A program made the position numbers and the translations under genes. Below are positions 31,947 through 56,774 of a stretch of DNA of 64,000 nt, piece by piece. The stretch comes from Candidatus Omnitrophota bacterium (GTDB lineage Bacteria; Omnitrophota; Gorgyraeia; Velamenicoccales; JABMQK01). The stretch lies in contig JAQTSV010000001.1 of the NCBI GenBank assembly GCA_028711115.1, positions 902,032 to 966,031 on the forward strand, read 5' to 3'. A model generated the notes under the pieces. It was not told the DNA's origin, did not search any database, and saw nothing but the letters and a program-made list of their open reading frames with translations. Positions within the stretch are counted from its first letter, which is position 1. Each line of letters begins with the position of its first letter.

Positions 31947-32984
31947 TTAGTATTTGGGCCCGCGTAAATAACCCCATGCTTCTCTAAGATAAAACCATAA
32001 CGAATGTCTTATTATTAGTTTATCGAATATCTTATCATCAATTTTTCTTAACTTCTGCTGCACAAACGTCCTTTTTATTAAAATTTCTTTTATATGAAAC
32101 AAATTCCAAAGAATCCCTTTCAATATCAAGACCGAATCAGTAAGCTTACCACGAAAGAAAAATAAGGCTGATAGACAAATCCAGCTAAAGATATGAACAG
32201 GCAAAATCTTAAGTAAATTCCTGCAGCCTAAGTTCTTCAGGAGAGTCATAATATAATTCCTGCAACCTAAAAATCTAATCATATAAGTTGAATAATATCT
32301 CTTTGACTCTTTTAAGGGAGTATTAAATGCATGCCAGACTACAGCCCGGGGCACAAATACCACCCTGTAACCTGAAAGCCACGCCCGGAAACAAAAATCA
32401 GTCTCTTCCAGAAAAATAAAATAAGAATCGTCGTACATGCCTAATTCTCTATACACAGAACTTCTGATCATCGTGGCTGCTGATTTTGCGCTAAGAATAT
32501 CCTCGACCTTGTCAAATTGGCCTTTATCGATACAGTGTCGTGAGCGTTCATATAAAAATCCCAATGGGGTTAAATAGTCGCCGGCGTGGTCGAATTTCTT
32601 CCTCTCCACCATATTGAGCAACTTGCACTGCGCTACGGCAATATTAGGATCGTTTTCAAATACTTTAACCAGTTCATTAATCCATTCGTTGTCTACTTCT
32701 GTATCGTTATCCAAAAAAGCAATATACTCGCCTTTAGCTTTCTCGAATCCAATATTTCTGGCAGCAGAAGGTCCGTAATTCTTATTATTCCGGACCATAA
32801 CAATACGTTCGTCTTTAAAATGATTCCTGACATATTCAGCGCTTCCGTCTGTAGAAGCATTATCAACAAAAATCACCTCAAATTCCTTATAGTTAGTCTT
32901 TAATAATGAACGGAAAAACCTGTCTACAAAATCTTTACCGTTAAAATTTATAACTATAACAGAAATTAATTCTAGGGTAGGCAT
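31947..32984 (-). CDS. GT2 glycosyltransferase, type A copy 1
   Basis: VIVINFNGKDF, FVDNASTDGS, FLDNDTEV, EETDFCFRAWLSGYRV. Clear paralog of 36467..37510. Confidence 0.8.
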   Translation of the reverse strand: MPTLELISVIVINFNGKDFVDRFFRSLLKTNYKEFEVIFVDNASTDGSAEYVRNHFKDERIVMVRNNKNYGPSAARNIGFEKAKGEYIAFLDNDTEVDNEWINELVKVFENDPNIAVAQCKLLNMVERKKFDHAGDYLTPLGFLYERSRHCIDKGQFDKVEDILSAKSAATMIRSSVYRELGMYDDSYFIFLEETDFCFRAWLSGYRVVFVPRAVVWHAFNTPLKESKRYYSTYMIRFLGCRNYIMTLLKNLGCRNLLKILPVHIFSWICLSALFFFRGKLTDSVLILKGILWNLFHIKEILIKRTFVQQKLRKIDDKIFDKLIIRHSLWFYLREAWGYLRGPKY

Positions 32985-33973
32985 TTAGGAATCATATTTT
33001 TAATCAAACCGAAAATTGTTCCTGATATACCGGAAAGCCAATCCAGATTTCTCGTTTCCAACGTCTTATAAACCCAGTAACAATTTATAAAAAACAAATA
33101 TGAATAAAATCTTATAAATTTCTGAAATGTATCCGGTTTTATGTGCCTGAAATAAAAAGTTATAAAATTAGCGCTCCTGTCGAAAGCATGGGTCCTGGCT
33201 CCAAAAACCCCTCTTATGCTTACGCGGTGTTCCGTGACCGCTCTGGGATTAAATACAAGCCTGTATCCTAATTTTTTTATCCTGAAGGCCAAATCCGGTT
33301 CGCTCCAGTCGCCCACACCGCCGTAACAATAATCAAAACCGCCGACTTCCTCAATAAGTTTTCTGCGCATACACATATGGCATGCCTCAAGGTAATCCAC
33401 TTCCAATAATCCTTCTTTTTTCAAACAGTCAGGGAAATTAGAACCTAAGGTAAATATGCCGCCTCGCAGAATCCTACCGACTTCATTTACTCTGCCTTCT
33501 AATATAAAATTCAGATAAAAACTTCCTAAACTTCTCCAGAAAATATTACCTTTTTCAAACCTCTTTACCAATAAAATTAAGTCTCTCAGTTTCCTTCTTC
33601 TTTCGCTGATTAGAGTAGGTCCGCTTACGCCGCCTATTTTCTCATCAGATAAAAATGTTTCTACGATTTCTTTAAGCCAAAAAGGTGAAACAACCAAATC
33701 ATCGTCGATTATACAGACTATGTCACTGTGTGTCTGCCTCCAGCAGAGATTTCTTGCCTCAACCAGTCCTGTCTTGCCTTGTTGAATAATCCGAATAGGT
33801 AAATTAAAATTCTTGACCAATTCCCCGACGGGTTTTTTGTCTCCGCCATTTACAATCGCAACATCAAAATTCCTGTAAGATTGTTTACTCAGGGAATCCA
33901 GGCATTTTGACAAATCCCTAGGCCGGTTAAAAGTATTAATGGCCACAGTAACAGTCAAATTATTATTTATCAT
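32972..33973 (-). CDS. GT2 glycosyltransferase, type B copy 1
   Basis: TVAINTFNRPRDL, IIDDDLVVSP, KGNIFW. Paralog of 39796..40797. Confidence 0.75.
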   Translation of the reverse strand: MINNNLTVTVAINTFNRPRDLSKCLDSLSKQSYRNFDVAIVNGGDKKPVGELVKNFNLPIRIIQQGKTGLVEARNLCWRQTHSDIVCIIDDDLVVSPFWLKEIVETFLSDEKIGGVSGPTLISERRRKLRDLILLVKRFEKGNIFWRSLGSFYLNFILEGRVNEVGRILRGGIFTLGSNFPDCLKKEGLLEVDYLEACHMCMRRKLIEEVGGFDYCYGGVGDWSEPDLAFRIKKLGYRLVFNPRAVTEHRVSIRGVFGARTHAFDRSANFITFYFRHIKPDTFQKFIRFYSYLFFINCYWVYKTLETRNLDWLSGISGTIFGLIKNMIPKCLP

Positions 33974-33984
33974 AAGAGCCAGAT

Positions 33985-35757
33985 TTAATGATTAGCCACT
34001 ATTTCGTAAACTTCGTCGTTATCAAATTTATTTATAAATTTGAAATCCTTTGATTTTGATAAATCCGGGGTTTCTCCTACTACGTCTATGGCTTCTTTAT
34101 TATTACCGGCCAAATAGTCATTCAGATGCAATATTACGTATTTCACTCCTAGGGCACTTAATATTTTCGGGGTAGCTGGATCAGTTATCCGTAATATACT
34201 CTTCTTAATCTCAGAACCCAGAGTCCCCGGTTCCGATCCCTCAATAATAGCCTTCCGGTGAAATCGCTGGTATAGAATGTTGTCTAGATTAATATATCCT
34301 TCTGCCATATCTCCTAAGGTCAAAGGATATTCGGCAATTACAAAAAATTCTTTTTGTTTACCTAGCCAGCTATATACCGGAGGACATTTGTCAATTTCCG
34401 TTACTCTTGAAGGTGGGATATTGGCAAAGTCTAAGAGAATTAAAAAAGAAAACAAACCTATAAAGAACTTATGCTTATGTTTTGTATTCATTAGACTGTT
34501 AAATCCATAACCGGCCAGTATGCTTATTGATAAAACACTAAGTACGCCAAACCTTGCATATGCCCTGAAAACAGGAAAAACTTTATATAAAAAGAAAGAC
34601 GGAAAATATATCTTAAAAAACAAAAGATTCCAATACGGAGGCATGGAAATAAGTACTGCTGAAATAAAAATAAATAAAAATAGCTGTTTAACAAATTTTG
34701 TTTGCTCAAGACTGTAATTTTGTACATGGGAAATTACATTCTCGCGCCTACGTATAGCAATAAATGACAAAATAAGCCCAACCCAACCCAAATAGAGAGT
34801 CTGCTCAATCGAACCCCGGCCAAAAAATATGCTGCCCTCCAGCGAACGCGCCAATCCTCCCCATAAAGGATGGTATTTGGAAGGAATCAGATACGCAAGT
34901 ATACTGGCGGATTGAGTGAACAAATAGTGAAATGACCTTATTGCAACATTCTGCGCTGCAGATATAGAATCATTACTGTGAGAAACTGTGACCGCTGCTT
35001 TTATCGAAGGCATAAGCAAAGGCAATACCATAAGTAATGATAAAATCCCCATTGTGAAGAAATTGATAAACAGCCTCGAGAATTCTTTAACAGGATATCT
35101 GTTTCTTAAATAATAAAAAACACAAAACAAAATATACAAAACAGAAAAAATAAAAATAATGTAGGAATATGTTAAATCGCTTAAAATAACCAGAGTCAAA
35201 CTTAATGAACAGAATATTAAATTACTGATATTCGGCTTATCTTTTAATTTCAGAAGGAAAAGTATGTATAACGGGATAAATTCTATAAACATAAGCCCGA
35301 AATGCTCCCAGGATTTATTTATATGATACGGGCTAAAGGTATAGATTAACCCTGAAATAAATGCCGCCGAATGGCGCTTGGTCAAATAAAAAACCAAAGC
35401 GTACATGCATAAAAACGAAAGAATAAAACTGCCTAATATCAGCGCGTTATAGGCAAATATCTCATTAAAAATAACGGAAAATAAATAAGCCGGAATCATA
35501 CAGAGAGGGAAAATCTGCGGGGCCATATATTTTACTCCAAATGGGTAATTGGTGAGTACATTGGTATCTACGTTTAAATTATTCTCTGCAGAATAATTAA
35601 ACCACCAAAAATGCCAAATGGCAGCTCTGTTATCCGTCCCATACAAAGGGCCATAAACAGCTTTGTCCATTTTGAACACCAATGGGAACGTAAAAACAAA
35701 AAGTATCACTAAAAAAGTAATAAAATAAATAATATGCTGTTTGGTATTTTTTCTCAT
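33985..35757 (-). CDS. Large polytopic membrane protein, candidate GT-C glycosyltransferase or polymerase
   Basis: 590 aa with about 12 or more TM segments in the first 450 aa, then a soluble C-terminal domain. No motif I can assign confidently. Embedded among GT2 genes. Confidence 0.4.
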   Translation of the reverse strand: MRKNTKQHIIYFITFLVILFVFTFPLVFKMDKAVYGPLYGTDNRAAIWHFWWFNYSAENNLNVDTNVLTNYPFGVKYMAPQIFPLCMIPAYLFSVIFNEIFAYNALILGSFILSFLCMYALVFYLTKRHSAAFISGLIYTFSPYHINKSWEHFGLMFIEFIPLYILFLLKLKDKPNISNLIFCSLSLTLVILSDLTYSYIIFIFSVLYILFCVFYYLRNRYPVKEFSRLFINFFTMGILSLLMVLPLLMPSIKAAVTVSHSNDSISAAQNVAIRSFHYLFTQSASILAYLIPSKYHPLWGGLARSLEGSIFFGRGSIEQTLYLGWVGLILSFIAIRRRENVISHVQNYSLEQTKFVKQLFLFIFISAVLISMPPYWNLLFFKIYFPSFFLYKVFPVFRAYARFGVLSVLSISILAGYGFNSLMNTKHKHKFFIGLFSFLILLDFANIPPSRVTEIDKCPPVYSWLGKQKEFFVIAEYPLTLGDMAEGYINLDNILYQRFHRKAIIEGSEPGTLGSEIKKSILRITDPATPKILSALGVKYVILHLNDYLAGNNKEAIDVVGETPDLSKSKDFKFINKFDNDEVYEIVANH

Positions 35758-36467
35758 ATAGCCTTCCTGAAAATCATAAGGTTATCGCAATACCACCAGA
35801 GAATCTTTTTTTCTCTCATGGCAGCCTTAACTCTCTCGGTTATTTTATCGTCGTAATCATAATTTCTTTCTTTGAAAATATTAACCCAGAACTCGTGTGG
35901 CTGCTCGTTTATGTGGAAATGCCCGCCCTGGCCTGGCGTTGCCGCTGTAAAAATAATTGTATCGCTTAAATTCGTAAGGTTCTCCACAAGCCTTTGGGAA
36001 AATTTATTCTCAATATGTTCGGCTACTTCCAGACATAATGCCAAATCATATCTTTTATCAAGTTCGATTTTATTCCTTAAATCAAATAACTGGATGTATT
36101 TTTTGTCTACCAGTGCCTTTTCTATAGCAGAGCGGCTGCCTTCATAACCCTGTATAGGAATACCTCTCTTTTGAAATTCGCTAAGGAATTCTGCGTTACC
36201 GCAGCCTAAATCTACAACCGAACTAGGATTAAAATAATCAATCAAAACTCCGGTTAATTTAGCCGCAATAGGAACATTCCATTCTAAATTCTTATTAAAA
36301 AACTTATCGTCATAAATTATGTCTTTGTGATTACTTCTTGCTTTCAAGATATAGTATTTTGACTTCTGATACAAAACTTTTGCTTTTTTAAGCAGCTTAT
36401 ATAAAGTCGGCAGATTATTTGCTACAAACTCTTCAAGATTATGCAGTTGTTTTTCGAAAAATTTCAT
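35754..36467 (-). CDS. Class I SAM-dependent methyltransferase
   Basis: VVDLGCGNAEF (motif I), LCLEVAEHI. 237 aa. Confidence 0.75.
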   Translation of the reverse strand: MKFFEKQLHNLEEFVANNLPTLYKLLKKAKVLYQKSKYYILKARSNHKDIIYDDKFFNKNLEWNVPIAAKLTGVLIDYFNPSSVVDLGCGNAEFLSEFQKRGIPIQGYEGSRSAIEKALVDKKYIQLFDLRNKIELDKRYDLALCLEVAEHIENKFSQRLVENLTNLSDTIIFTAATPGQGGHFHINEQPHEFWVNIFKERNYDYDDKITERVKAAMREKKILWWYCDNLMIFRKAI

Positions 36468-37510
36468 TAGTAAGGTCGTCCTGTGACGTATCTGGTTGCT
36501 ATAAGAAAATAATAACTAAGCGGCTTTTTTTGCATTATCAAATTAAATATATCGCGGTCTTTTACCTTTCTTATATTTTTCTGTACAAGATTTCTCTTTG
36601 AGATAATCTTTGGAAAATCCCAGATCACACTAAAAATGGCCTTGAGGATAAAAAATGCGTCGCTGAATTTTCCTCTCAATAAAAATAATAGCGATAAAAT
36701 TAAGAAACCTGAAACCTGAAAAAATAACATCTTGAACACATTGAAGAAATTTGCGTTCTTTAAAACAGTAATCAAATAATTTCTACAGCCAAAGTATCGG
36801 ACGATATAATTTGAGTAGTATTTCTTTTCATCTTTGAGCTTAGTTATATAAGCGTGCCAGACTATCGACTTTGGCGAAAAAACGACCCTGCAACCTGAAA
36901 GCCACGCCCGCCAGCAAAAGTCAGTTTCTTCCAGATACATAAAATAAGAATCGTCATACATACCTAATTCTTTAAACGCCGAGCTCTTTATCATTGTGGC
37001 GGCGCCTTTGGCATTAAAAATATTTTCTACTCTATCGAATTGGCCTGTGTCTTTTGCACCATTAGAGCGTTCTACCAAAAATCCGAATGGTGTAATAAAA
37101 TCTCCGGCGTGGTCAAACCTGTCTTTTTGCGCCATATTAAGAAGTTTTGCCTGCGCTACAGCAATCTTTTCATCTTTAGAAAATACACTTAAAAATTCTT
37201 CAATCCAGCCTTTCTCCACCACAGTATCATTATCCAGAAAAATTATATATTCGCCTTTGGAATAGTTAAAACCGATATTCCTTCCTCCAGGCACGCCGTA
37301 GTTTTTTCTTTCGCTTACAATATTAATCTTGGCAGAATAATTATTCCTTAAAAATAGCACGCTATCGTCAGTGGAGGCGTTATCCACTACGATTATTTCA
37401 AAGTTTTGATATGTGGAGGCCAAAACCGAATCCAGGCAGGACTTGAGAAATTCTTTTCCGTTGTAATTTAGTATTATTATGGAAACCAAAGGTTGGGCGT
37501 GGCTTTGCAA
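36467..37510 (-). CDS. GT2 glycosyltransferase, type A copy 2
   Basis: SIIILNYNGKEF, VVDNASTDDS, FLDNDTVV, EETDFCWRAWLSGCRV. Roughly half of the positions are identical to 31947..32984 by eye. Confidence 0.8.
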   Translation of the reverse strand: MQSHAQPLVSIIILNYNGKEFLKSCLDSVLASTYQNFEIIVVDNASTDDSVLFLRNNYSAKINIVSERKNYGVPGGRNIGFNYSKGEYIIFLDNDTVVEKGWIEEFLSVFSKDEKIAVAQAKLLNMAQKDRFDHAGDFITPFGFLVERSNGAKDTGQFDRVENIFNAKGAATMIKSSAFKELGMYDDSYFMYLEETDFCWRAWLSGCRVVFSPKSIVWHAYITKLKDEKKYYSNYIVRYFGCRNYLITVLKNANFFNVFKMLFFQVSGFLILSLLFLLRGKFSDAFFILKAIFSVIWDFPKIISKRNLVQKNIRKVKDRDIFNLIMQKKPLSYYFLIATRYVTGRPY

Positions 37511-37512
37511 AA

Positions 37513-38286
37513 TTAACCCCGTTTTTTCGCTACTACGGTAATATCCCAGTCGCTGGGCTTAATTTTTCTTTTAAGATTCGAAAAAGGAAAAACTCCCAAT
37601 ACGCTAAAACCGTTTTTCTCTAGTATCGACTTCATCTCATTAACAAAAAAATACCTTACGAGGTGAGATTCTCTGGACTGGCTTCTTTCTTTGGTCGCTT
37701 TATCCAAAACGCTGACCTTATAATTTACGCGGCATAGGTTCTTCGTAGGAAAAATATCTGTTTTTGACTCGCGTTCGATCACTAAATTCTTATAAACGAA
37801 CTTTTTCTTTTTATAAGGCGTATAATTTTTAACAACTACCGCGCCGTTCCAAAAATCAAAAATAAAAAGAGAATCTTTTTTAAGGCATTGCCGCACATTA
37901 AATATAAATCTTTCAAGATCTTTATAGTCGGTAAGGTAATCTATTGTGGAAAACATGGAGATAATGGCGTCAAACTTTTTATCGCACTTTAAATTTTGCA
38001 TCTTCATGCAACAATATTTGACCTTCAAAGAATTTGTTTTTGCTTTCTCGCCAGCCCTTTTAAGCATATGCTTCGATGCGTCTATACCGGTGACGGAGTA
38101 ACCCATTTTGGCAAGAATGTTCGCGTGGCCGCCGGTTCCGCAAGCAACATCAAGGATGGATTTGGGTTTATTTATAGAGAATTTCTTAAAAATATCCTCT
38201 AAAAACCTGCATTCTTTCTTATAGTCTTTATTTCTATAAAAAATATCGTAAAAAAAGGCGTAATCTTTATCAAAAACTTTTTTCAT
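37513..38286 (-). CDS. Class I SAM-dependent methyltransferase
   Basis: ILDVACGTGGHANILAKMGYSVTGIDAS (motifs I/II). Confidence 0.8.
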   Translation of the reverse strand: MKKVFDKDYAFFYDIFYRNKDYKKECRFLEDIFKKFSINKPKSILDVACGTGGHANILAKMGYSVTGIDASKHMLKRAGEKAKTNSLKVKYCCMKMQNLKCDKKFDAIISMFSTIDYLTDYKDLERFIFNVRQCLKKDSLFIFDFWNGAVVVKNYTPYKKKKFVYKNLVIERESKTDIFPTKNLCRVNYKVSVLDKATKERSQSRESHLVRYFFVNEMKSILEKNGFSVLGVFPFSNLKRKIKPSDWDITVVAKKRG

Positions 38287-38288
38287 GC

Positions 38289-39386
38289 TTAAAATGATTT
38301 TATAATTTTTACAACTGACTTTATCTGTTCTTCTTTTAAGCCGCTCCCCGAGGGTAAATATAGGCCTGTGGCCGCCAATATGTCTGTCGTGGGATATTTT
38401 TCACCGCGGAATAATCCCATCTTCTTAAAAACCGGCTGCCTGTGCATTCCTATAAAGAAATCCCGGGTTTCGACTCCTTTGTCTTTCAGGTAACTCACAA
38501 AAGCCTTTTTCTTATTCTTCATTTTACCCTTCAAAGTAATGCCATACATCCAATAAACATTTTTAGCGTAGGATTTTTCTACGGGAGTATTTATCCAATC
38601 AATATCATTTAACAAGTTGTTGTAAAGAAAAGCGTGCTTTCTTCTTAAATTGACAAATTTATCTATGTTTTCCAATTGCGCCAGGCCTATTGCCGCCTGA
38701 ATGTTTGTCATGCGATAATTAAAACCTATCTCATGATGGATAAACCTTCTTTTTATGAAAGACAAATTTTTGAGCAATTTTAATTTCTCAGCTATCTTTT
38801 TATTGCTGGTTAAAACCATGCCGCCTTCGCCGCAAGTTATAATTTTATTGGCGTAAAAACTAAAACAAGCCACATCGCTCAACGAACCGATAATCTTTCC
38901 CTTGTAGAACGCTCCATGCGCTTCTGCCGCGTCTTCTACAACGTATAAATTATATTTTTTGGCGATTTGTCTTATGGGATCCATATCGCAGGGATGGCCG
39001 TAAATATGCACAGGGAGTATTGCTTTTGTTTTTTTGGTGATTTTCTTTTCAATCAGACTTACGTCGATATTTCCCGTATCTAATTCTGCGTCTACCAATA
39101 CGGGCTTTGCGCCTACATAACAAATTGCAAAGACAGTGGAAATCATGGTAAAAGACGGAACAATTACTTCGTCGCCTTTTTTAATACCCAATGCCGCTAG
39201 CGCTAAATGCAGAGCTGTTGTTCCGTTTGTCGTGGCTACGCCGAATTTTACATTGCAATAAACAGAAAATTTCTCCTCGAATTCCGAGATATATTTACCT
39301 TGAGAAGAAATCCAATTCGTCTTAAAACAATCTGTTACATATTGCAATTCTTTTCCTGTTAAAAACGGAGTGCAAACCGGTATCAT
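38289..39386 (-). CDS. DegT/DnrJ/EryC1/StrS family PLP aminotransferase (NDP-4-keto-sugar aminotransferase)
   Basis: CTPFLTGKELQYV, NGTTALHLAL, and FSFYANKIITCGEGGMV containing the PLP lysine. Confidence 0.85.
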   Translation of the reverse strand: MIPVCTPFLTGKELQYVTDCFKTNWISSQGKYISEFEEKFSVYCNVKFGVATTNGTTALHLALAALGIKKGDEVIVPSFTMISTVFAICYVGAKPVLVDAELDTGNIDVSLIEKKITKKTKAILPVHIYGHPCDMDPIRQIAKKYNLYVVEDAAEAHGAFYKGKIIGSLSDVACFSFYANKIITCGEGGMVLTSNKKIAEKLKLLKNLSFIKRRFIHHEIGFNYRMTNIQAAIGLAQLENIDKFVNLRRKHAFLYNNLLNDIDWINTPVEKSYAKNVYWMYGITLKGKMKNKKKAFVSYLKDKGVETRDFFIGMHRQPVFKKMGLFRGEKYPTTDILAATGLYLPSGSGLKEEQIKSVVKIIKSF

Positions 39387-39387: not shown

Positions 39388-39792
39388 TTACTCCTTTACT
39401 TTAAGGTATACTTTATTTTTTTCGCTGTATGGGCCTTCTTTCACTTCTATCAGATGCGATTTCTCCAGAAATTTGAATCCGTGCGCACCGCTTAACAAAA
39501 TCAAAAGGTCTCCTGTTTTAATTACCTTTTTACAAAATAACTTTGTGCCTTTTACATAGAAATGGACTTCGACTTTACCTTTTTTAACATAAAGCACTTC
39601 CTGTGTCGGCTCTTCACGCACCACCTTCAACTCTCTGTGCTTATGAGGTTTTATATTATGTTCTTTTGGATAAATCAGCATACCAACCTGAAAGGCGCTG
39701 TTTGCGCTGGTAAAGAAATGAGCGCCGTCCTCTAAAAAACTATTTCTTACAATCATACCCAAAATCTTATTCTTGTATTTAATTGTTTCCAT
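39388..39792 (-). CDS. Small cupin-fold protein (FdtA/WbuC-like sugar-nucleotide isomerase candidate)
   Basis: 134 aa. IKPHKHRE His pair and beta-rich cupin pattern. 2 nt from the aminotransferase start. Confidence 0.45.
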   Translation of the reverse strand: METIKYKNKILGMIVRNSFLEDGAHFFTSANSAFQVGMLIYPKEHNIKPHKHRELKVVREEPTQEVLYVKKGKVEVHFYVKGTKLFCKKVIKTGDLLILLSGAHGFKFLEKSHLIEVKEGPYSEKNKVYLKVKE

Positions 39793-46061: not shown

Positions 46062-46063
46062 TA

Positions 46064-49441: not shown

Positions 49442-50879
49442 ATATATGCCCTATGACCTTTTTAAAACCCCTGAAGAAATATTTGATATCATTTGCATCT
49501 CTTATGGACATCATTCTTCTTAGAATAAATTCGGGGTTATAAGCAACGCTATAAATACCGTAAACCAATTCTGACATTTTATTCTTATCAAAAGCAGTTT
49601 TCATGACAGGATTCTTCATATCGTAATCATCCCAGTCTTGGCTTGTCAATTCACCACAGGATTTACATTCTTCAAATAATTTGCTGCCCGGATAAGGTAT
49701 GACTATTGTAGCCTGTACTGTATAGGCAATGCCTTTCTTTAAAAGCCATCTACCCAATTCAAGAGTCTTTAATGCATCTTCGTATGTCTCCCAGGGATAA
49801 CCGAACATTATGGTAATGTGAGGATAAAGCCCTGCTGCCTTTGCCATTTTGCACGACTTAATTATATCTTGGACGTTCAAATTCTTATTTATTTTATCCA
49901 GAGTCTTCTGATTGGCAGATTCAAGGCCGAACAATACCAATCTAAAGCCAGCCTTTTTCATCATCGCGTATTCTTCTTGCCCCAAGACTCCAAATCTCAT
50001 ATTGCAATCAATATTGACTTTTCTGTTAAGCCTTCTATTCATCATGCCTTCACAAAATTCAACAAGCCACTTTCCGACGGGGAAAGTGCCGGTGTCGTCC
50101 ATTATCTCCCTTACCCTGTATTTTTCCACCAACATATCTATTTCGTCGAGAACGCTGACAGGAGTCCTGGCTCTGAATTGCGGATATAACGTCGGCCAAG
50201 AACAGAATTTGCACTTACCCCACCAGCAATCACGCCCGGACATTATATATGTTCCCGGGGTCCTTTTGAAATTGCCGTTCTTGAAGGCGTATAATTTCCA
50301 ATTTGTCAATTCCCTGTCAATAAAAGGTAAACCGTCCAAATTGTGATTTAAAATAAACTGACCGGAGTTTTTAATTTCTGCATTATTCCTATAATATATG
50401 CCTGGCTCAAAACTATCATATGAACCCCCGTCTTTTAAAACACGGCATAAATTAAGCAGAAGGAAGTCGTAGTCGCCGCCGGTTAAAATAAAGTCGACTT
50501 GGGAATTTCGCATTGATTCTTCCGGCAATGCCGTAACATGATCGCCGCACAATACAACTTTAATTTTTGGATTCTGTTTTTTAATCTCGTCTATTATCTT
50601 CCAGTGTTGTTTGACAACAGGCGTCTTTGTTTCCATGGCAATGATATCGGGACTTTCTTTCTGAATAAATTCATAAAACTCGGGTTTTTCTATATTTTTA
50701 GCGATACAGTCTTTCCATAAAATATCAAAACCATCTTCTTTCAATAAAGTAGCTGCACAAGCTGGCACCACAGGATAAATATATGTCGGTTCCTTAAAAT
50801 ATTGAAACTGCCTGTTCTGGGAAAGCAGAGGCGTCCCCTTGGTTTTATCAAGCGGCGGATAGGTAAAGATTATCTTCAT
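49428..50879 (-). CDS. B12-binding-domain radical SAM enzyme, copy 3, with atypical CX4CX2C cluster motif
   Basis: N-terminal B12-like domain (DIIAMETKT, VVLCGDH). The cluster motif reads GRDCWWGKCKFCSW, verified on the DNA at 50202..50228. Confidence 0.7.
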   Translation of the reverse strand: MKIIFTYPPLDKTKGTPLLSQNRQFQYFKEPTYIYPVVPACAATLLKEDGFDILWKDCIAKNIEKPEFYEFIQKESPDIIAMETKTPVVKQHWKIIDEIKKQNPKIKVVLCGDHVTALPEESMRNSQVDFILTGGDYDFLLLNLCRVLKDGGSYDSFEPGIYYRNNAEIKNSGQFILNHNLDGLPFIDRELTNWKLYAFKNGNFKRTPGTYIMSGRDCWWGKCKFCSWPTLYPQFRARTPVSVLDEIDMLVEKYRVREIMDDTGTFPVGKWLVEFCEGMMNRRLNRKVNIDCNMRFGVLGQEEYAMMKKAGFRLVLFGLESANQKTLDKINKNLNVQDIIKSCKMAKAAGLYPHITIMFGYPWETYEDALKTLELGRWLLKKGIAYTVQATIVIPYPGSKLFEECKSCGELTSQDWDDYDMKNPVMKTAFDKNKMSELVYGIYSVAYNPEFILRRMMSIRDANDIKYFFRGFKKVIGHIFDFK

Positions 50880-51832
50880 AGCTCTTCTCTTAATCTAAAC
50901 GATAAAAAACCTTTAATAAAATTTAGCCCGTATGTCAAATGAGTCAATATTGAACCGGCGAATACATAAAAAGATAACTTAAGGCTTTTCTGAATACTGA
51001 AAACAAAAACAAAAAGTAAATAAAAAAGGGGCACATAAAAGAATCTTAAATCTGAAACCAAACCAAGGATTAACGAACCTAAAATAATAGCCGTCATAAT
51101 AGAAGGAATAAAGTATCCGAATTTAAGCGAAGTTTGCGGATAGCGTTTCAAAAAATAACCTCTGTGTGTAGCATAACTGACTATCTGGGAGAGATGTTTC
51201 TTAAAAAGCTGCCTTCTGTGGTGATATACAATAACCGCAGGGTCGTATAATATTCTTTTCTTTAGTTTATGCACAACCTCAAGGCACAAAATCGTATCCT
51301 CGCCAGGCCAAAACTTTGTCTTGAAACCTCCTATCTCTTGGAAAATATTATTTCTTATAAAAAAGTTACACGACGGAAAATCGTCTGTAAAACGCTTTCT
51401 TAAGGGGACATAGCGGAATCTGGCCGGACCACTGATTATCAAAGACTCATACACCTTACCGCTGGCTTTATTCAAAAATGGCTCGTTTTCCGGAGTTACA
51501 GCCGGGCCGCCTACGCAGGCGATTGATTCCTCATTAAAATTTATCACTGCATTCTTTAGCCAATCGGCTGTGGGATAGGTATCATCATCTAAGAAAGCAA
51601 GTATTTCGCCGCTGGCGTTACTGGCACCGATATCTCTTTTTGCAGCTGGCAGGGCCTTACCAGTGGCGATAATTTTTATATGTCTTTCATTATAAACACC
51701 CATCATATCGTCTGGCAGAATAATAACTTCAAAAAAAGGATAATCTAACTTAATGCAATGATCCACGCATTCTTCCAGCAAAGGATTATTCTGTTTTACG
51801 GCAATTATTATGGACACCGAGGGAAATATCAT
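50876..51832 (-). CDS. GT2 glycosyltransferase with C-terminal TM segments
   Basis: VSIIIAVKQNN, FLDDDTYP. C-terminal hydrophobic helices (FIPSIMTAIILGSLILGLV, FYVPLFYLLFVFVF). Confidence 0.7.
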   Translation of the reverse strand: MIFPSVSIIIAVKQNNPLLEECVDHCIKLDYPFFEVIILPDDMMGVYNERHIKIIATGKALPAAKRDIGASNASGEILAFLDDDTYPTADWLKNAVINFNEESIACVGGPAVTPENEPFLNKASGKVYESLIISGPARFRYVPLRKRFTDDFPSCNFFIRNNIFQEIGGFKTKFWPGEDTILCLEVVHKLKKRILYDPAVIVYHHRRQLFKKHLSQIVSYATHRGYFLKRYPQTSLKFGYFIPSIMTAIILGSLILGLVSDLRFFYVPLFYLLFVFVFSIQKSLKLSFYVFAGSILTHLTYGLNFIKGFLSFRLREEL

Positions 51833-51842
51833 ACCTAGACGT

Positions 51843-53255
51843 CTACTGCTCCTGGTTTTTAAACATATTATGTAAAACTAATTTTATGGCATTGAATACT
51901 AACCGCAATTGCTTTATGGATTTTACCCTTCTAATCTGTGAAATTATCTTGCCCGGCCTTAGATAGAATTCCCTGTATGCCCTCTTTTGCCAATAAATTA
52001 TTCTCTGGGGCTCTAAACCTGCCAACCGGTGTACTGGTTTGGTGTATATGCCATAATCATCGTAATTATCGCTTAATAGTAAATTATCTTTTTTCAATTG
52101 CTTATAAACCTCACTACCCGGGTAAGGTTTTAAAATATAGAATTTTGCAAAATCGGGGTCTATCTCTTTAGAAAAATCTATTGTCTCTCTGATAGTATAC
52201 TCTGACTCTCCGGGTAATCCGAATATCAAAAAAGCCCACGTTTCGAAGCCTAATTCTTTAGAAAGCTTGAAGGCTTTTTTTGTTGTCTCAAGAGGTATAT
52301 GTTTTTTGATATTCTTTAAAATTTCGGGATTTGCCGATTCAACGCCGTAACCAACCGTTTTAAAACCTGTTTCCTTCAGTGCCGTCAATATATCCCTATC
52401 TACAAAATCGGCTCGCAAGCCATTCATGAACTGAAAATTTACTTTAATATTCTGGTTTTTTATCTCCCTGCAAAAATCCAGAACTCTTTGCTTTATCAGA
52501 GTAAAGGTATCGTCCGCTATGTGAATTTCTTTTATGCCATTTCTATTAATGAGCTCTTTAATCTCTGCAATTATATTTTTAACGCTTCTTGCGCGAAATC
52601 TCCTGGAAAAAATTTGTTTTACGCAACAAAAAGAACATTCACCCGGACAGCCTCTGGAAGTAATTATTGTAGCGACTGGTAAGTCTGTCGCATCCGGCGG
52701 CATAAAGGCATTGGCATTCTTAATCAGGGCTATGTCTGGAAAAGGAAGCATATCTAAATTATCTATCAAAGGCCGCGCAGCGCATATTGTCGGACGGCCT
52801 TTTTCCTTAAACCAAATGCCCTTGATATTTCTCAAGTTCGGTGAGGGCTGTTCTAATTCCCTGAATAATTCATCAGCCGTTGCCTCCCCTTCGCCTACCA
52901 CGACAATATCAACAGAATCATTTACTATAATTTCTTCCGCGGTTATCGTGGCGTGGATTCCACCTAAAACGACAGGTATATTCTTAATCCCTTTTGATAT
53001 CCTTGCCCACTTTAGGGCATCATTTATTGTGGGCGTAACGCTTGTTATGCCCACGGCAGCGGGGTCAAATTCCTTAAAGACATCTTTAAATTTGTCTTCG
53101 TTTATACCTTCTGTATCAATATCTAATAATCGCACCTCGTGGCCAGAATTCTTTAAAACTGTCCCCACATACAATAAACCTAATGGCGGATAGGCCGGCA
53201 TTAGCTTTATACCGTATACTTTCTCCTGAGAAGGATTAATCAAAAGTATCTTCAT
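51843..53255 (-). CDS. B12-binding-domain radical SAM enzyme (class B), copy 4
   Basis: PLGLLYVGTVL, AVGITS, VLGGIH, then TSRGCPGECSFCC (CX3CX2C). Confidence 0.8.
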   Translation of the reverse strand: MKILLINPSQEKVYGIKLMPAYPPLGLLYVGTVLKNSGHEVRLLDIDTEGINEDKFKDVFKEFDPAAVGITSVTPTINDALKWARISKGIKNIPVVLGGIHATITAEEIIVNDSVDIVVVGEGEATADELFRELEQPSPNLRNIKGIWFKEKGRPTICAARPLIDNLDMLPFPDIALIKNANAFMPPDATDLPVATIITSRGCPGECSFCCVKQIFSRRFRARSVKNIIAEIKELINRNGIKEIHIADDTFTLIKQRVLDFCREIKNQNIKVNFQFMNGLRADFVDRDILTALKETGFKTVGYGVESANPEILKNIKKHIPLETTKKAFKLSKELGFETWAFLIFGLPGESEYTIRETIDFSKEIDPDFAKFYILKPYPGSEVYKQLKKDNLLLSDNYDDYGIYTKPVHRLAGLEPQRIIYWQKRAYREFYLRPGKIISQIRRVKSIKQLRLVFNAIKLVLHNMFKNQEQ

Positions 53256-53998
53256 TATCCAATCTTGTCGTAGTACTTTAAAATATACATCCTGTAAAAT
53301 ATCGCCATTGTGTCAACCCACATTTCAATAATTTCATAAATTCCGATACGATTAAATTCCCTTTTGGAATCAATTATTACAGGCGCCTCGGCAATCTTAT
53401 AGCCCAGGCGATGTGCGTTAACTAAAACTTCCAAATCAAAAGCAAAGGCCTTGACTACAATCTTGGGAAAAACCCTCTTCAGTACCTCGTACTTAAATAA
53501 CTTTAATCCGGTCTGAGTATCTTTTATGGGCAAACCAAACATAATTTTTATTAAGAAGAAATAAACCGAACTTATAATCTTTCTCTGCAAGGGATAATTT
53601 AATACAGAATTAGGATGCCTTTTCGAGCCTATAACTATATCCGCATTATCCAATTTCATAATATCGAAGAAAGTTTCTATCTGGGCGGGGTGCAAATCAA
53701 TATCCGAATCCAGGAATACTACATACTGACCTGTGGCAAGGCGGAAACCCTTCTTCAGCGCTCTTCCCTTGCCGTAATTTTCCATGTTCCTGGTAACTTT
53801 AACATTCGTAAATTTTTCTGATATATTTTTAATTTTCTGCAAGGTATCATCTGTGCTGCCGTCATCAATAACGATGATCTCAAAGTCTAAATTAAATCTT
53901 TTAAATGTATCTATGGTCTCAAGAATATTTCTTTCGATAACCTCTGCTTCATTAAACGCAGGCATAATAACTGAGATTTTTTCTTTTATGTCCATCAT
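53255..53998 (-). CDS. GT2 glycosyltransferase, polyprenyl-phosphate hexose synthase-like (Dpm1/GtrB type)
   Basis: SVIMPAFNEAEVI, VIDDGSTDDT, FLDSDIDL, QTGLKLF. Confidence 0.75.
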   Translation of the reverse strand: MMDIKEKISVIMPAFNEAEVIERNILETIDTFKRFNLDFEIIVIDDGSTDDTLQKIKNISEKFTNVKVTRNMENYGKGRALKKGFRLATGQYVVFLDSDIDLHPAQIETFFDIMKLDNADIVIGSKRHPNSVLNYPLQRKIISSVYFFLIKIMFGLPIKDTQTGLKLFKYEVLKRVFPKIVVKAFAFDLEVLVNAHRLGYKIAEAPVIIDSKREFNRIGIYEIIEMWVDTMAIFYRMYILKYYDKIG

Positions 53999-55935
53999 GC
54001 CTTCTTTTCCTTAAAGCTATACATGCTTCGTAAACCCAAATAAAACACCAACAGCGAAGAAATAAATAATATCGCTATTATTTCAAACAAAGTTTGGTGG
54101 AATAAAATTATGGCGATAATCTGCAAAAGCGAAATTATTAAGACAGAAACAATAAACCGTACATTGCTAAAAGACAGATTGTAAAATATAAAAATGTAAT
54201 CTAAAGCGAACAAGGCCATGGGGAAAATAATCAATCTCACCAAGGGGACACATTCTGCCAGGGCATTCCCGGAAATAACCCTTAAAACAAAACGAGGAAA
54301 GATAAATGTAAACACAATGGCCATAATGCATATTGCCGATACAAAAAATAGACTTTTCTTCAATAAGGGGACTATGTTTTTATTCTGCGTCTTATGCTGG
54401 ATGGTTACGGGAAAAAATACAAGCGCCAATGCGCTAGGAAGAAACAAAAGAATCTTACCGACTGTCTGGACGACAGAATAGATACCGGTATCATAGTCGC
54501 TGAAAAAATGTTTCACAAATATAACATCAGTACTTGTAAAAATAGTATAGGCTATCAAGGATATGCTCACAGGCAGAAAATAACCATAAATATCTTTTAA
54601 TCCAAGGCCGGTTTTATGCCGAACGTAATCCTTTCTATTCATCTTAAATACCCAAGAAGGAATCTGGAACAATGAGAATATGAAAGCAAGCGCTGCTGAG
54701 AGGATAAACCCTAAAAACGCGCCCAACGCCTTAAAGCCCAAAAATACAAGCAATATGCCTATAAAAAACTTACTCAACGACTGAATAATTGAATTGACGG
54801 CGATACCGTTAAAAAGGTGTATTCCCTGCATCGTGCCTATGGTCAATATCGACAAATTGCTAAAAAACATAAATAACGTAGAAAGGTATATAAATGTTTT
54901 GCTGTCTAAATTCAGGAAATTAGCGATATTCGGAGTAAACAATATAAAAATAAAAACAACCGCCAAGTTTATGATTACAATCCTCTTCAAAAAGGCACGA
55001 AATAGCGCCTGGATTTCTTCTTTCTTATCCAATGCCTTAAATTCTGAGAAATATTTTGCCAATACAGTCTGGATAATCACCGTGGGAAGCCCTGACACAA
55101 TAAGAAAAGAAGACATTGAATTCAATATCCCGTAATCCGTATAGCTGAGTTTTCTTATCATGAACAACCAAAATGCCAGGCTGAAAATATTCCCTAAAAG
55201 CGAAGATAAAAATATAATGCTGCCGTGTTTTATGACAGTATCATCCAAAAATAATTTAAGAATATGAAATCCTTCTTTAATCAGGTCTTTAAGGATAAAC
55301 CTGAAAAATCTTATCGTGTCCACGACAGGATTTATCTGGCTCTCCTGGCCTTCATAGATACTTTTTATTTCGGTGGAAGTTATGCGGTAATTCTTCTTGG
55401 CCGCCTGGATGAGGAGCTCCGATTCAATTTCATAATTCGAAGTGGAAAAAATCATATCTTTTAATACAGATTTCTTTATAAAACGAAAACCACACTGACT
55501 ATCTGGAATGTAAGTTTTACAGATGGAAGAAATTATCATAGACATAACTTTATTGGTAATCCAGCGGTGCAGCGGCATATTTTTGGGGTCGTCCATCCTG
55601 TTACCGACAATTATATCGCTGTTACTTTGAGAAAATTCGCGGATAAAATTATCTATGTCCTCCGGGCGGTGCTGGCCATCACCGTCCATTGTAATAATAA
55701 AATCATAGTCTTGGTTTATAACTTTATTGAAACCTGTGCGAAGCGACGCTCCTTTGCCCATATTACGGGTATGACGAATCACCTCGGCGCCTGCCTTCCT
55801 GGCAAACCCTGCAGTATCGTCTCTTGAACCGTCATCCACAACCAAAACGTCCAAACCAAATATCTTAACCTTAGAGATAAGGTTGTGGATAATTTTCGCT
55901 TCATTAAAAGTCGGTATTATTACACAACCTTTCAT
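53995..55935 (-). CDS. Fusion protein: N-terminal Dpm1/GtrB-like GT2 domain plus C-terminal MOP-superfamily polysaccharide flippase (Wzx-like)
   Basis: ORF extends to 55965, but the Met at 55935 (MKGCVIIPTFNEAK) forms an ATGA overlap with the upstream stop. GT2 motifs VVDDGSRDDT, TMDGDGQH, SQCGFRF. From about residue 235 there are about 12 TM helices with polysaccharide-biosynthesis/flippase-like composition. Confidence 0.7.
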   Translation of the reverse strand: MKGCVIIPTFNEAKIIHNLISKVKIFGLDVLVVDDGSRDDTAGFARKAGAEVIRHTRNMGKGASLRTGFNKVINQDYDFIITMDGDGQHRPEDIDNFIREFSQSNSDIIVGNRMDDPKNMPLHRWITNKVMSMIISSICKTYIPDSQCGFRFIKKSVLKDMIFSTSNYEIESELLIQAAKKNYRITSTEIKSIYEGQESQINPVVDTIRFFRFILKDLIKEGFHILKLFLDDTVIKHGSIIFLSSLLGNIFSLAFWLFMIRKLSYTDYGILNSMSSFLIVSGLPTVIIQTVLAKYFSEFKALDKKEEIQALFRAFLKRIVIINLAVVFIFILFTPNIANFLNLDSKTFIYLSTLFMFFSNLSILTIGTMQGIHLFNGIAVNSIIQSLSKFFIGILLVFLGFKALGAFLGFILSAALAFIFSLFQIPSWVFKMNRKDYVRHKTGLGLKDIYGYFLPVSISLIAYTIFTSTDVIFVKHFFSDYDTGIYSVVQTVGKILLFLPSALALVFFPVTIQHKTQNKNIVPLLKKSLFFVSAICIMAIVFTFIFPRFVLRVISGNALAECVPLVRLIIFPMALFALDYIFIFYNLSFSNVRFIVSVLIISLLQIIAIILFHQTLFEIIAILFISSLLVFYLGLRSMYSFKEKKA

Positions 55936-56774
55936 TCTTTCCAAAACTCCCGAAACATTAGCCATTGAGAAGGATCTTCGGCAATTTCTTGCTCTATTAT
56001 TTTGGTATACTTTTTCATCACTTCCAGCTCATTCATTTCACTTGAAATTTCTATAGGAGGCAGGCATTCCATTACGCAACGATCAAGCGATTGCCGCGTA
56101 ACAATTGTAGGCAAAATAGGCGCCCCTGTACGCAATGACAAAACAGCAGGACCTCGCGGAATGCTCTTCTTCCTCCCGAAGAAATCCAAAGGATAACCTG
56201 AATTACTAAAATCCCTGTCCCCCAGAATAGCGAGTACTTTGTTATCCTTCAAACCCTTGTAACACTGTTTTATAGAGCTACCCAGAGAAATAACTTCTAT
56301 GCCTTTGCTTTGTCTTCTTCTCTTGAAAAAATTATTTATCTCTGAATCCTTGTGGTCTAAAGCCACAACCATTAATTTATATCCTAAAATCGACAATGCC
56401 ATCCCAGCCAATTCCCAATTTCCAAGATGAGCAGCTAACAATATCACTCCCTTTCCTTTTTTCAGGGCATTATCTAAATTATCTCTTCCCTTTATAGAAA
56501 AATGCTTCTCAATATAGGCTTTATCTATCTGTGAAAAACGAAAGAACTCTATTAAATATAAACCGAAATTTACAAATACCTCTATTGCCTTCTTTCTTAT
56601 GACGTCTTCCTTTTCGTTTGGTAAAATAACCCGCAGGTTATTCATTACAGCATCTCTGTCTTTTTTAGAAATTGAAAATTGTAATTTTGCCAAGAAAACA
56701 GCCATCTTATAGGCGATATTCCACGGCAAAATAACGGCCAATATTTCACCAACTTTATATAAAATATTTAACAT
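55932..56774 (-). CDS. Lysophospholipid/lipid A-type late acyltransferase family (LpxL/HtrB/PatA-like)
   Basis: N-terminal membrane anchor. LAAHLGNWELAG (HX4E acyltransferase motif). 280 aa. Confidence 0.7.
   Translation of the reverse strand: MLNILYKVGEILAVILPWNIAYKMAVFLAKLQFSISKKDRDAVMNNLRVILPNEKEDVIRKKAIEVFVNFGLYLIEFFRFSQIDKAYIEKHFSIKGRDNLDNALKKGKGVILLAAHLGNWELAGMALSILGYKLMVVALDHKDSEINNFFKRRRQSKGIEVISLGSSIKQCYKGLKDNKVLAILGDRDFSNSGYPLDFFGRKKSIPRGPAVLSLRTGAPILPTIVTRQSLDRCVMECLPPIEISSEMNELEVMKKYTKIIEQEIAEDPSQWLMFREFWKE

Follow-up and report, generated by a model that had tools for sequence, protein, structure and literature searches.

Putative envelope-glycan operon of a Candidatus Omnitrophota bacterium encoding four B12-domain radical SAM enzymes beside glycosyltransferases and class I methyltransferases

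In the gentamicin pathway (GenD2/GenS2/GenN/GenD1 and GenK), a DegT aminotransferase, a class I N-methyltransferase and B12-type radical S-adenosylmethionine (SAM) enzymes are clustered with glycosyltransferases, and the cobalamin-dependent radical SAM enzyme C-methylates a sugar that is already on the scaffold (PMC4340712). A similar combination of genes is found in the stretch of DNA studied here, 64,000 nucleotides from a Candidatus Omnitrophota bacterium (GenBank assembly GCA_028711115.1, contig JAQTSV010000001.1, positions 902,032 to 966,031; the whole stretch is called the window), in which 22 consecutive genes (g01 to g22) encode, among other proteins, four radical SAM enzymes with a B12-type domain (rSAM1 to rSAM4). 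Gentamicin is made by aerobic actinomycetes as a soluble secondary metabolite, whereas the genes here, including GT2 glycosyltransferases, a flippase and a GT-C enzyme, form an apparent envelope-glycan operon in an anaerobic candidate phylum. The likeness of GenK and GenD1 to rSAM1-4 would be a functional analogy by enzyme class, with homology seen up to the superfamily level.

The three-component glycosylation systems, namely GtrB/GtrA/Gtr*, CsbB-GtcA-YfhO, ArnC-ArnD-ArnE/F-ArnT and the polyprenyl-phosphoribose system, are the reference systems for this locus (PMC11127046, PMC8035078). They have in common with its predicted products three components: a polyprenyl-phosphate sugar synthase of the GT2 type, a flippase of the MOP/MATE type and a GT-C transferase. 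Unlike in these systems, the putative synthase and the putative flippase are fused here (g01), and no radical SAM enzyme is mentioned for three-component systems in the searched literature. The GT-C enzyme is YfhO/DUF6311-like in the window and PMT_2-like in the cross-phylum gene triads described below. A further likeness is offered by HpnI-HpnK-HpnJ (hopanoid cyclitol ether) and the calditol synthase Cds, in which a GT2 enzyme adds a hexosamine or hexose to a lipid, and remodelling of the lipid-bound sugar by a radical SAM enzyme is then proposed (PMC13459092); these differ in that the products are lipid head groups, not polymers, and that the ring contraction is only proposed.

For single enzymes of the locus, other relatives are closer. 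MgmA (9CCB) is the closest solved structure to rSAM1 by sequence and fold and has the same two-domain size of about 450 aa, but its substrate is a peptide (glutamine C-methylation in methyl-coenzyme M reductase) and its context is that of a methanogen. AprD4 from apramycin biosynthesis (6FD2) acts on a sugar, as is proposed for the four enzymes here, but works without cobalamin (PMC12931638). The GDP-perosamine and GDP-D-rhamnose O-antigen pathways (ManC-Gmd-Per/Rmd) share with the locus ManC, an Rmd-like short-chain dehydrogenase/reductase (SDR) and an aminotransferase similar to the Caulobacter perosamine synthase. Unlike in those pathways, a canonical Gmd is not found (g08 reaches 197 bits on the gmd equivalog, against a cut-off of 415), and there is no N-acyltransferase in the locus. 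With the extra cupin and the DesVI-like methyltransferase, the product would rather be an amino sugar that is isomerised and/or N-methylated, as far as sequence likeness goes.

Overall, the best explanation for the 22 genes is that they assemble a heavily tailored envelope glycan of the lipopolysaccharide (LPS)-side-chain or lipoglycan type, to which we assign a probability of about 0.5, and the four B12-domain radical SAM enzymes are quite likely to tailor the sugars of a glycan. According to the open reading frame (ORF) listing of the window, the genes occupy 31947-55965 on the minus strand almost without gaps, the junctions ranging from -70 to +62 nt with 11 overlaps. This confirms the contiguous, co-directional gene row described in the original prediction, which had been made from the sequence alone. 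Every plausibly coding ORF of at least 120 aa in the window is on the minus strand, and this applies to all features below. The row encodes four B12-domain radical SAM enzymes, five class I methyltransferases and eight GT2 proteins, one of which is the GT2-flippase fusion; ManC, an Rmd/Gmd-like SDR, a perosamine-synthase-like aminotransferase, a cupin and a 590-aa protein of GT-C fold are encoded as well. Pfam found the GT2 domain PF00535 in eight proteins (at 53995, 53255, 50876, 45228, 39796, 36467, 32972 and 31947), not in nine as had been claimed, and the list accompanying that claim held eight coordinates too. All five predicted class I methyltransferases carry the corresponding Pfam domains (at 48521, 42935, 40797, 37513 and 35754).

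The operon probably extends upstream of g01. The gene for an LpxL/PatA-type lipid acyltransferase (55932..56774; PF03279, 175.6 bits) shares 34 nt with g01, and the gene for a GT28/MGDG (monogalactosyldiacylglycerol)-synthase-like glycosyltransferase (56768..57895; PF06925, 81 bits, plus PF00534 and PF04101) shares 7 nt with the acyltransferase gene. As these genes overlap into g01, the transcription unit probably begins at about 57895 and comprises about 26 kb in total (about 31947-57895) as a single minus-strand unit. The GT28 gene is the probable first gene and a candidate for a glycolipid-anchor synthase, and the operon may build on such an anchor. At the other end, a gap of 198 nt lies below g22, the last gene, and contains the sole 10/12 minus-strand promoter-like site. 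Scans for promoters and terminators at both borders of the locus gave results at or below shuffle expectation, so these signals set no boundaries, and Rfam and tRNA scans of the whole window returned no match and no tRNA. Recent horizontal acquisition is without support, because the GC content (0.35-0.385) and skew of the locus match those of the rest of the window. The clustering is not due to chance, since related contigs repeat the same arrangement. An identical rSAM1 protein is also encoded on contig JAQUPK010000001.1 of GCA_028716625.1, a Candidatus Omnitrophica metagenome-assembled genome (MAG), and the rSAM1 protein occurs on shorter contigs from runs SRR22315506-09.

As predicted from the sequence, all four radical SAM proteins score above gathering for both PF02310 (gathering score 32.1 bits) and PF04055 in the profile search. 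The two scores are 87.9 and 98.2 bits for rSAM1 (51843..53255), 45.2 and 69.5 bits for rSAM2 (49428..50879), 61.3 and 82.2 bits for rSAM3 (43783..45231), and 69.5 and 74.9 bits for rSAM4 (41531..42931), respectively. The CxxxCxxC motif for the [4Fe-4S] cluster is present in rSAM1 (C203xxxCxxC), rSAM3 (C200xxxCxxC) and rSAM4 (C186xxxCxxC), and rSAM2 has the non-canonical form C218x4CxxC. Two orthologues with about 50% identity retain the latter spacing, one from Woesearchaeota (locus L014), where the motif reads CPYGKCKFC, and one from a gammaproteobacterial MAG (L065), where it reads CWWGRCTFC. With identities of 25-34% to one another, the four proteins are old paralogues.

The radical SAM genes are organised as GT2-rSAM(-methyltransferase) cassettes, a feature that had been missed in the original prediction. 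Three of them are translationally coupled to an upstream GT2 gene: the overlap is 1 nt between g02 and the start of rSAM1 and 4 nt in each of the pairs g04/rSAM2 and g09/rSAM3. A class I methyltransferase gene comes next after three of the four (rSAM2-g06, rSAM3-g11 and rSAM4-g13). Further, in four homologues of rSAM3 (P0299, P0327, P0334 and P0348; 50-52% identity, 686-753 aa), at least the first of which is from an Omnitrophica MAG, the B12-domain radical SAM protein is fused to a C-terminal class I methyltransferase domain, mirroring the adjacency of rSAM3 and g11. These single-polypeptide fusions would make a convenient target for biochemistry.

The glycan had been predicted to derive from mannose or 6-deoxyhexose, and the sugar-supply genes bear this out. 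The product of g07 (47062..48486) is ManC, a mannose-1-phosphate guanylyltransferase/phosphomannose isomerase (TIGR01479, 453 bits, above the cut-off of 373). The GDP-sugar SDR encoded by g08 (46064..47017; PF16363, 298.7 bits), which is Rmd/Gmd-like, is matched best in the PDB by the GDP-6-deoxy-D-lyxo-4-hexulose reductase Rmd (2PK3, 2e-88). The DegT-family aminotransferase of g16 (38289..39386; PF01041, 408.6 bits) resembles GDP-perosamine synthase, with PDB matches of about 1e-94 to 3BN1 (GDP-perosamine synthase, the best) and 3DR7, and the class I methyltransferase of g17 (37513..38286), encoded directly after it, resembles the sugar N,N-dimethyltransferases DesVI (3BXO, 5e-14) and TylM1 (3PFG, 7.5e-10). 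ManC, the SDR, the DegT enzyme and the polytopic membrane protein were thus named correctly from the start, and the cupin remains weak: the small WbuC-like protein of g15 (39388..39792) matches TIGR04366 with an E value of 5e-5, below the cut-off, and has no match in Pfam or the PDB. It is possibly a ketoisomerase or epimerase. Taken together, a glycan locus fed by GDP-mannose-derived sugars is supported, and the branch of ManC, SDR, cupin, aminotransferase and methyltransferase can, judging by its relatives, supply 6-deoxy and (N-methyl)amino-6-deoxy hexoses. The other class I SAM methyltransferases are encoded by g06 (48521..49441; PF13489, 79.6 bits), g11 (42935..43756, between rSAM3 and rSAM4; PF08241, 70 bits; best NCBIfam match CpaM, below cut-off), g13 (40797..41468; PF08241, 60 bits) and g19 (35754..36467; PF13489, 43 bits), the last of which lies directly upstream of the GT-C gene and is conserved there.

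The glycosyltransferases include parts of a three-component extracytoplasmic glycosylation route. The GT2 part of g01 (53995..55965; PF00535, 88 bits) has AglJ (125 bits) and PpgS (116 bits) as its best NCBIfam matches, both below cut-off, and this half of the predicted GT2-flippase fusion was confirmed. The C-terminal half contains 13 hydrophobic segments (about 12 transmembrane helices) and fell short of gathering as a flippase (PF01943, 25.1 vs 28.2 bits; HfsF, 28 bits), with no PDB sequence match, yet over 375 aa it shares 32.5% identity with a strongly scoring Polysacc_synt protein encoded by a stand-alone gene of the metagenome contig L079. The small soluble GT2 g02 (53255..53998, 247 aa; PF00535, 123.5 bits) matches PgfS (72 bits), ArnC (62.5 bits) and PpgS (61 bits) in NCBIfam, all below cut-off, and the P. 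furiosus dolichyl-phosphate mannose synthase (5MLZ, 2.8e-19) in the PDB. Its alignments exceed about 170 residues, reaching up to about 200, only with PpgS, AglJ, a haloarchaeal dolichyl-phosphate hexose transferase and 5MLZ; about 170 residues are aligned with ArnC and PgfS, and most other matches cover only the N-terminal 100-130 residues. By these likenesses, g02 and the GT2 domain of g01 resemble polyprenyl-phosphate-sugar synthases, and g02 is possibly such a synthase. The other GT2 genes are g04 (50876..51832; PF00535, 55 bits), with a C-terminal two-helix membrane hairpin (transmembrane segments 241-259 and 262-280); g09 (45228..46133; 88 bits), whose true start is probably internal (277 aa in the public annotation); the paralogues g14 (39796..40797; 98 bits) and g21 (32972..33973; 73 bits), 40% identical; and the paralogues g18 (36467..37510; 109.8 bits), with a C-terminal transmembrane hairpin, and g22 (31947..32984; 120.7 bits), 51% identical.

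The 590-aa polytopic protein g20 (33985..35757), which had not been recognised before as a GT-C transferase, has no Pfam match itself, but its homologues carry PF19830 (DUF6311) or PF09586 (YfhO). Its AlphaFold (AF2) model (pLDDT 86.4, pTM 0.89) was matched by Foldseek to STT3, AglB, PglB, DPY19, ArnT and AftA with E values of 3e-9 to 2e-4 and a probability of 1.00. On this model, g20 has a GT-C fold, and its donor is expected to be a polyprenyl-phosphate-linked sugar. It is the combination of synthase-like GT2, putative MOP-type flippase domain and g20 that makes up the parts of the three-component route. Neither WecA/WbaP nor Wzy is encoded within 31947-57895. The Wzm/Wzt genes lie at 11781-13932, about 18 kb away with housekeeping genes between, and an O-antigen pathway dependent on this ATP-binding cassette transporter does not fit the locus, as a transporter and a chain terminator were not found inside it.

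Much of the gene order recurs on other contigs. In the 124.8-kb L079, orthologues of g02, g04, rSAM2, g09, rSAM3, rSAM4 and g14-g20 follow in order with 47-81% identity, and g11, g13, g21 and g22 are absent; L080 keeps g08, g09, rSAM3, rSAM4, g19, g20, g21 and g22. The rSAM2 orthologue of L079 is 65% identical. Orthologues of g09 (74-80%) lie upstream of that of rSAM3, directly adjacent in L079 and with a methyltransferase gene and a small ORF between in L080, and those of rSAM4 (69-71%) adjoin rSAM3 in both. The cupin g15 is 81% conserved in L079, beside the DegT gene. Orthologues of g19 (60-62%) adjoin that of g20 in both loci, and L080 has orthologues of g21 (61%, after g20) and g22 (63%). 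The syntenic loci all come from MAGs, single-amplified genomes (SAGs) or metagenome contigs, and none is tied to a described polymer. In L079, AbiEii toxin/HTH (helix-turn-helix) antitoxin-like gene pairs are inserted at 389-1614 and 2676-4080, that is, at the position of rSAM1 in the window and between the g04 and rSAM2 orthologues, so mobile or defence genes interrupt the glycan operon there.

A scan across phyla in species-representative genomes returned 68 loci, all from MAGs or SAGs, in Omnitrophota, Woese- and Pacearchaeota, Patescibacteria/Saccharibacteria, Planctomycetia, Lentisphaerae, Elusimicrobia, Desulfovibrionaceae, Cloacimonadota and Methanospirillum. The rSAM1 orthologues share 42-81% identity across phyla, and their loci span Omnitrophota, Planctomycetota, Patescibacteria, Lentisphaerota and DPANN archaea, often with a PMT_2-containing triad. 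By neighbour counts that are approximate, as a crude ORF caller was used, the gene immediately upstream of the rSAM1 orthologue encodes a GT2 in 18 of 47 loci (often of about 245 aa and with a 4-nt overlap), the gene immediately downstream encodes a PMT_2 GT-C enzyme in 12 of 49, and a colinear GT2-rSAM-GT-C triad occurs in eight loci from three phyla. Most GT2 proteins of the triads are closely related, with 47-79% identity across phyla, the exception being that of L012 (about 30% to the others). Their PMT_2 enzymes and g20 are not orthologues: jackhmmer with g20 found no link to the PMT_2 protein of L008, indicating that the GT-C enzymes of the window and of the triads belong to different families. 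Among the 41 related loci of at least 15 kb, 34 have homologues of glycan genes within 10 kb, and 21 have two or more B12-domain radical SAM genes.

The sister loci L076 and L078 have rSAM1 orthologues of 63-67% identity and four B12-domain radical SAM genes each; in L076, which also has two PMT_2 GT-C genes, these lie within 21 kb, and L078 has in addition PMT_2, a WecA-like transferase, Wzy_C and a GT9 heptosyltransferase, the last three of which link this type of locus to LPS. A conserved quartet of radical SAM paralogues was ruled out, because only rSAM1 has an orthologue in L005, L076 and L078; the other radical SAM proteins of the sister loci L076 and L078 are 24-32% identical to any paralogue in the window, indicating that the paralogue pool diversifies from locus to locus, as glycosyltransferases do. 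The enzymes rSAM2, rSAM3 and rSAM4 are conserved not with the rSAM1 sisters but in the syntenic L079 and L080 (rSAM2 in L079). The original prediction had known of no characterised locus with four such enzymes. The searched literature indeed contains none, and it describes no B12-domain radical SAM enzymes in envelope-glycan loci or beside GT-C enzymes, an absence that is no proof; four per locus is however not unique, as the sister Omnitrophota loci match it. Since loci with several such enzymes are common in these lineages, the window, with four radical SAM enzymes and five methyltransferases, is a rich example of a recurrent theme and no singleton. Neither glycan operons nor class B radical SAM enzymes are new in themselves; the searched literature has no account of their systematic pairing as GT2-rSAM(-methyltransferase)-GT-C cassettes in uncultivated bacteria and archaea.

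In the mechanism that we propose, the GDP-mannose branch would supply 6-deoxy and (N-methyl)amino-6-deoxy hexoses, and each radical SAM enzyme would act right after its coupled GT2 on the sugar that this GT2 installs (g02-rSAM1, g04-rSAM2, g09-rSAM3), usually teamed with the class I methyltransferase encoded next to it. The substrate would be a lipid-linked sugar on the cytoplasmic face before flipping, and the reaction would be a methylcobalamin-dependent methylation of an unactivated sugar carbon. Flipping and then transfer by the GT-C enzyme would follow, giving a glycan that bears C-, O- and N-methyl groups. ArnD and DprE1/E2 are precedents for the modification of a sugar on its lipid carrier. 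In three-component systems, the incorporated pentofuranose is diversified by auxiliary epimerases (PMC11127046), lipid-linked sugars are also the proposed substrates of HpnJ and Cds (PMC13459092), and GenD2/GenS2/GenN/GenD1 tailor the sugar after glycosyl transfer (PMC4340712). Methylcobalamin-dependent C-methylation is the single most likely reaction, although we put it forward tentatively. It is preferred because most characterised members of class B, a very large group that is mostly uncharacterised, are methyltransferases (PMC12931638), because the N-terminal domains are like those of cobalamin binders, and because GenD1 and GenK provide a sugar precedent (PMC4340712).

Several observations weigh against the reading of the operon as an envelope-glycan locus with sugar-methylating radical SAM enzymes. 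L079 lacks rSAM1 altogether; g02 is only 25-34% identical to the GT2 proteins of the triads; and the gene after rSAM1 in the window encodes a GT2, not a GT-C enzyme. About eight loci with rSAM1 orthologues lie among housekeeping genes and contain no detectable glycan homologues, which rules out a universal glycan linkage of these orthologues and leaves one that is strong. The neighbour counts carry the roughness of the ORF caller, no cobalamin riboswitch was found in the window by the Rfam scan, and we infer both the acceptor and the lipid-linked timing. In NCBIfam, none of the four enzymes reaches an equivalog cut-off (BchE, HpnJ, AprD4, MgmA, PhpK, HpnR and others), so function is not transferable by homology, and HpnJ is the best or second-best match of all four. 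Sequence and fold together tie the methylase MgmA with AprD4, which is non-methylating and cobalamin-free. The radical C-methylation specified in the original prediction is accordingly not established, with this tie and with HpnJ among the top matches; as to its other risk, none of the four falls into a characterised non-glycan family.

The matches behind this placement are as follows. For rSAM1-4, the scores are 217, 112, 137 and 137 bits on BchE (TIGR02026, cut-off 481), 203.7, 148.7, 174.2 and 164.4 bits on HpnJ (TIGR03471, cut-off 577.6), 98, 34, 101 and 93 bits, mostly over the radical SAM core only, on AprD4 (NF033070, cut-off 500), and 121, 52, 116 and 69 bits on MgmA/QCMT (TIGR04014, cut-off 360); PhpK and Sden_1168 (P-methyltransferases), KedN5, TsrM and C-methyltransferases of peptides that are ribosomally synthesized and then modified post-translationally (RiPPs) all score far below their cut-offs (282-700 bits). 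Neither hopanoid (hpn/shc) nor tetrapyrrole/bch genes are present in the window, and annotation labels such as 'BchE-like cyclase' or 'YgiQ' on such radical SAM genes are misleading. The best PDB sequence match is MgmA (9CCB) for rSAM1 (E 1.3e-23, 23% identity) and rSAM2, and AprD4 (6FD2) for rSAM3 and rSAM4 (1e-20 and 2e-20, core only). The AF2 model of rSAM1 (pLDDT 91.3) retrieved MgmA with 2.9e-25 (TM score 0.68/0.76) and AprD4 with 3.3e-25, and a methylase and a dehydratase are not separable by this fold search. MgmA/QCMT is a true cobalamin-dependent C-methyltransferase (PMC11796369, PMC12931638), and the paper on it provides no cobalamin-binding motif transferable to the enzymes here. 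AprD4 is a sugar 1,2-diol dehydratase that binds no cobalamin (PMC12931638) and so exemplifies a B12-type domain without the cofactor; no sequence motif is diagnostic of cobalamin binding.

The explanation that survives best after C-methylation, possible but on balance doubtful, is that the radical SAM enzymes tailor sugars by non-methylating radical chemistry and that methyl groups come only from the five class I methyltransferases. The options are an oxidation or 1,2-diol dehydration as in AprD4 or BtrN, which would give a keto group for the DegT aminotransferase, and a ring contraction or rearrangement of the kind suggested for HpnJ and Cds, or like that of OxsB. This would account for the AprD4 matches of rSAM3 and rSAM4 and the tie in the rSAM1 fold search, for HpnJ as the top NCBIfam match of all but rSAM1, and for the neighbourhood of rSAM1 orthologues in L005, L077 and L078, where they overlap a downstream DegT gene by 4 nt, and in L007/L018, where the order is GT2-rSAM-DegT. 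The radical SAM-methyltransferase fusions would also fit an enzyme that prepares a site for methylation by the class I domain. Against it, the AprD4 likeness is limited to the core, whereas the N-terminal domains reach 45-88 bits on PF02310 and align with the cobalamin binders MgmA, TokK, CysS and OxsB, which favours genuine cobalamin domains as far as sequence can tell. In addition, methyltransferases prevail among the characterised class B enzymes, and HpnJ (149-204 vs 577 bits) and AprD4 (34-101 vs 500 bits) are far below their cut-offs.

It is unlikely that the glycan is instead placed on proteins by general O- or N-glycosylation, with g20 transferring oligosaccharides or monosaccharides to surface proteins. 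The structures that g20 matches best, the oligosaccharyltransferases STT3, AglB and PglB and the C-mannosyltransferase DPY19, point in this direction, as do a Woesearchaeota locus with rSAM1 and rSAM2 orthologues that contains STT3/AglB and the PMT_2 family beside rSAM1 orthologues, which includes protein O-mannosyltransferases. However, ArnT and AftA, whose acceptors are lipids or glycans, are significant among the fold matches of g20 too, and the homologues of g20 carry YfhO or DUF6311, not STT3. The operon head consists of the GT28 glycolipid-synthase-like and LpxL/PatA-like acyltransferase genes, and the sister L078 has Wzy_C and a GT9 heptosyltransferase.

The same operon head, together with NCBIfam matches to the ladderane-lipid radical SAM enzyme (84-138 bits) and HpnR and with the membrane-spanning-lipid enzymes encoded by Omnitrophota (bioRxiv 10.1101/2023.10.20.563219), could be taken to mean that the radical SAM enzymes modify a lipid, such as the glycolipid anchor, its acyl or alkyl chains or the polyprenyl carrier, in the manner of HpnP/HpnR, GrsA/B and Hgm. 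We regard this as improbable, considering that the ladderane and HpnR scores are far below cut-offs, that the conserved partners are GT2, DegT, class I methyltransferase and GT-C genes and not lipid-synthesis genes, and that the radical SAM paralogues vary from locus to locus as much as glycosyltransferases do, a typical trait of glycan-specific tailoring. That the four enzymes are unrelated passengers, either BchE-type cofactor enzymes (BchE is the top match of rSAM1 at 217 bits, and some homologues are publicly annotated 'anaerobic Mg-protoporphyrin cyclase') or peptide/RiPP modifiers like MgmA, the best PDB match of rSAM1 and rSAM2, which modifies a protein (PMC11796369), would agree with the loci in housekeeping context but is most improbable in view of the BchE cut-off of 481 bits, the lack of tetrapyrrole genes and of obvious precursor-peptide or RiPP genes, the translational coupling to GT2 genes and the gene order conserved across loci and phyla.

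A wider form of the tailoring of envelope-glycan sugars is conceivable, though we consider it doubtful: GT2-B12-rSAM(-methyltransferase)-GT-C may represent an unrecognised cross-domain type of three-component glycosylation, in which a polyprenyl-phosphate-linked monosaccharide would be remodelled by cobalamin-dependent radical chemistry, either C-methylation or skeletal rearrangement, before flipping and transfer, in Omnitrophota, Planctomycetota, Lentisphaerota, Patescibacteria and DPANN archaea.

The rest of the window contains further gene groups. By appearance, 163-14297 is a separate cluster for the synthesis and export of a nonulosonic acid of the legionaminic or pseudaminic type. It encodes a GATase (glutamine amidotransferase) and HisF-like amidotransferase pair, an SDR, a CMP-sugar synthetase, a CBS-nucleotidyltransferase, NeuB and a formyltransferase-PglD fusion, and further a UDP-GlcNAc 2-epimerase, a DegT aminotransferase, a second SDR, a KpsS-like protein, Wzt (with the carbohydrate-binding domain Wzt_C), Wzm and MarR. 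Two tandem GalT-like paralogues (galactose-1-phosphate uridylyltransferase/HIT) lie at 16472-18495 beside the glyceraldehyde-3-phosphate dehydrogenase gene, and the housekeeping genes around them, including those of PriA and Fmt, separate the glycan clusters. A second small module at 21368-27615, consisting of a GT28 MGDG-synthase-like gene, a haloacid dehalogenase (HAD) phosphatase, a GT87 (GT-C) enzyme, two small GT2 proteins, a DegT enzyme and DUF3108, parallels the head of the main operon. DUF3108 is also encoded at 57987-58796, just upstream of the main operon, and some homologues of g20 are fused to it. Directly downstream of the glycan locus, 27662-31748 holds a trio of genes for DUF4956, a CotH-like protein (907 aa) and a VTC-domain protein; in L079, a DUF4956-CotH pair (78% and 55% identity) follows immediately after the g20 orthologue at 19787-21464. 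As the pair follows the locus in both places, it may be functionally linked to it. A fusion of a ParA/MinD-type ATPase with a CBM48/AMPK glycogen-binding module is encoded at 59539-60630 and adjoins a GH57 glycoside hydrolase (61328-62866), which suggests a role in the positioning of glycogen or alpha-glucan granules.

To our knowledge, every known sugar-directed class B radical SAM enzyme has either a soluble antibiotic or a lipid head group as its target. If the enzymes described here do tailor envelope glycans, radical C-H functionalisation would join ordinary cell-surface polysaccharide assembly, and new sugar structures, C-methylated or rearranged, would be expected on the surfaces of Omnitrophota, the candidate phyla radiation and DPANN archaea, which mediate episymbiotic contacts and phage recognition. 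The diversity of surface antigens in anoxic habitats would then be tied to the availability of cobalamin, and the compact, translationally coupled GT2-rSAM(-GT-C) cassettes would be good reconstitution targets for enzymologists. Should the cross-domain form hold as well, C-branched or carbocyclic sugars would be present on envelopes across much of the uncultivated anaerobic biosphere, with radical SAM paralogues diversifying per locus like serotype-specific glycosyltransferases.

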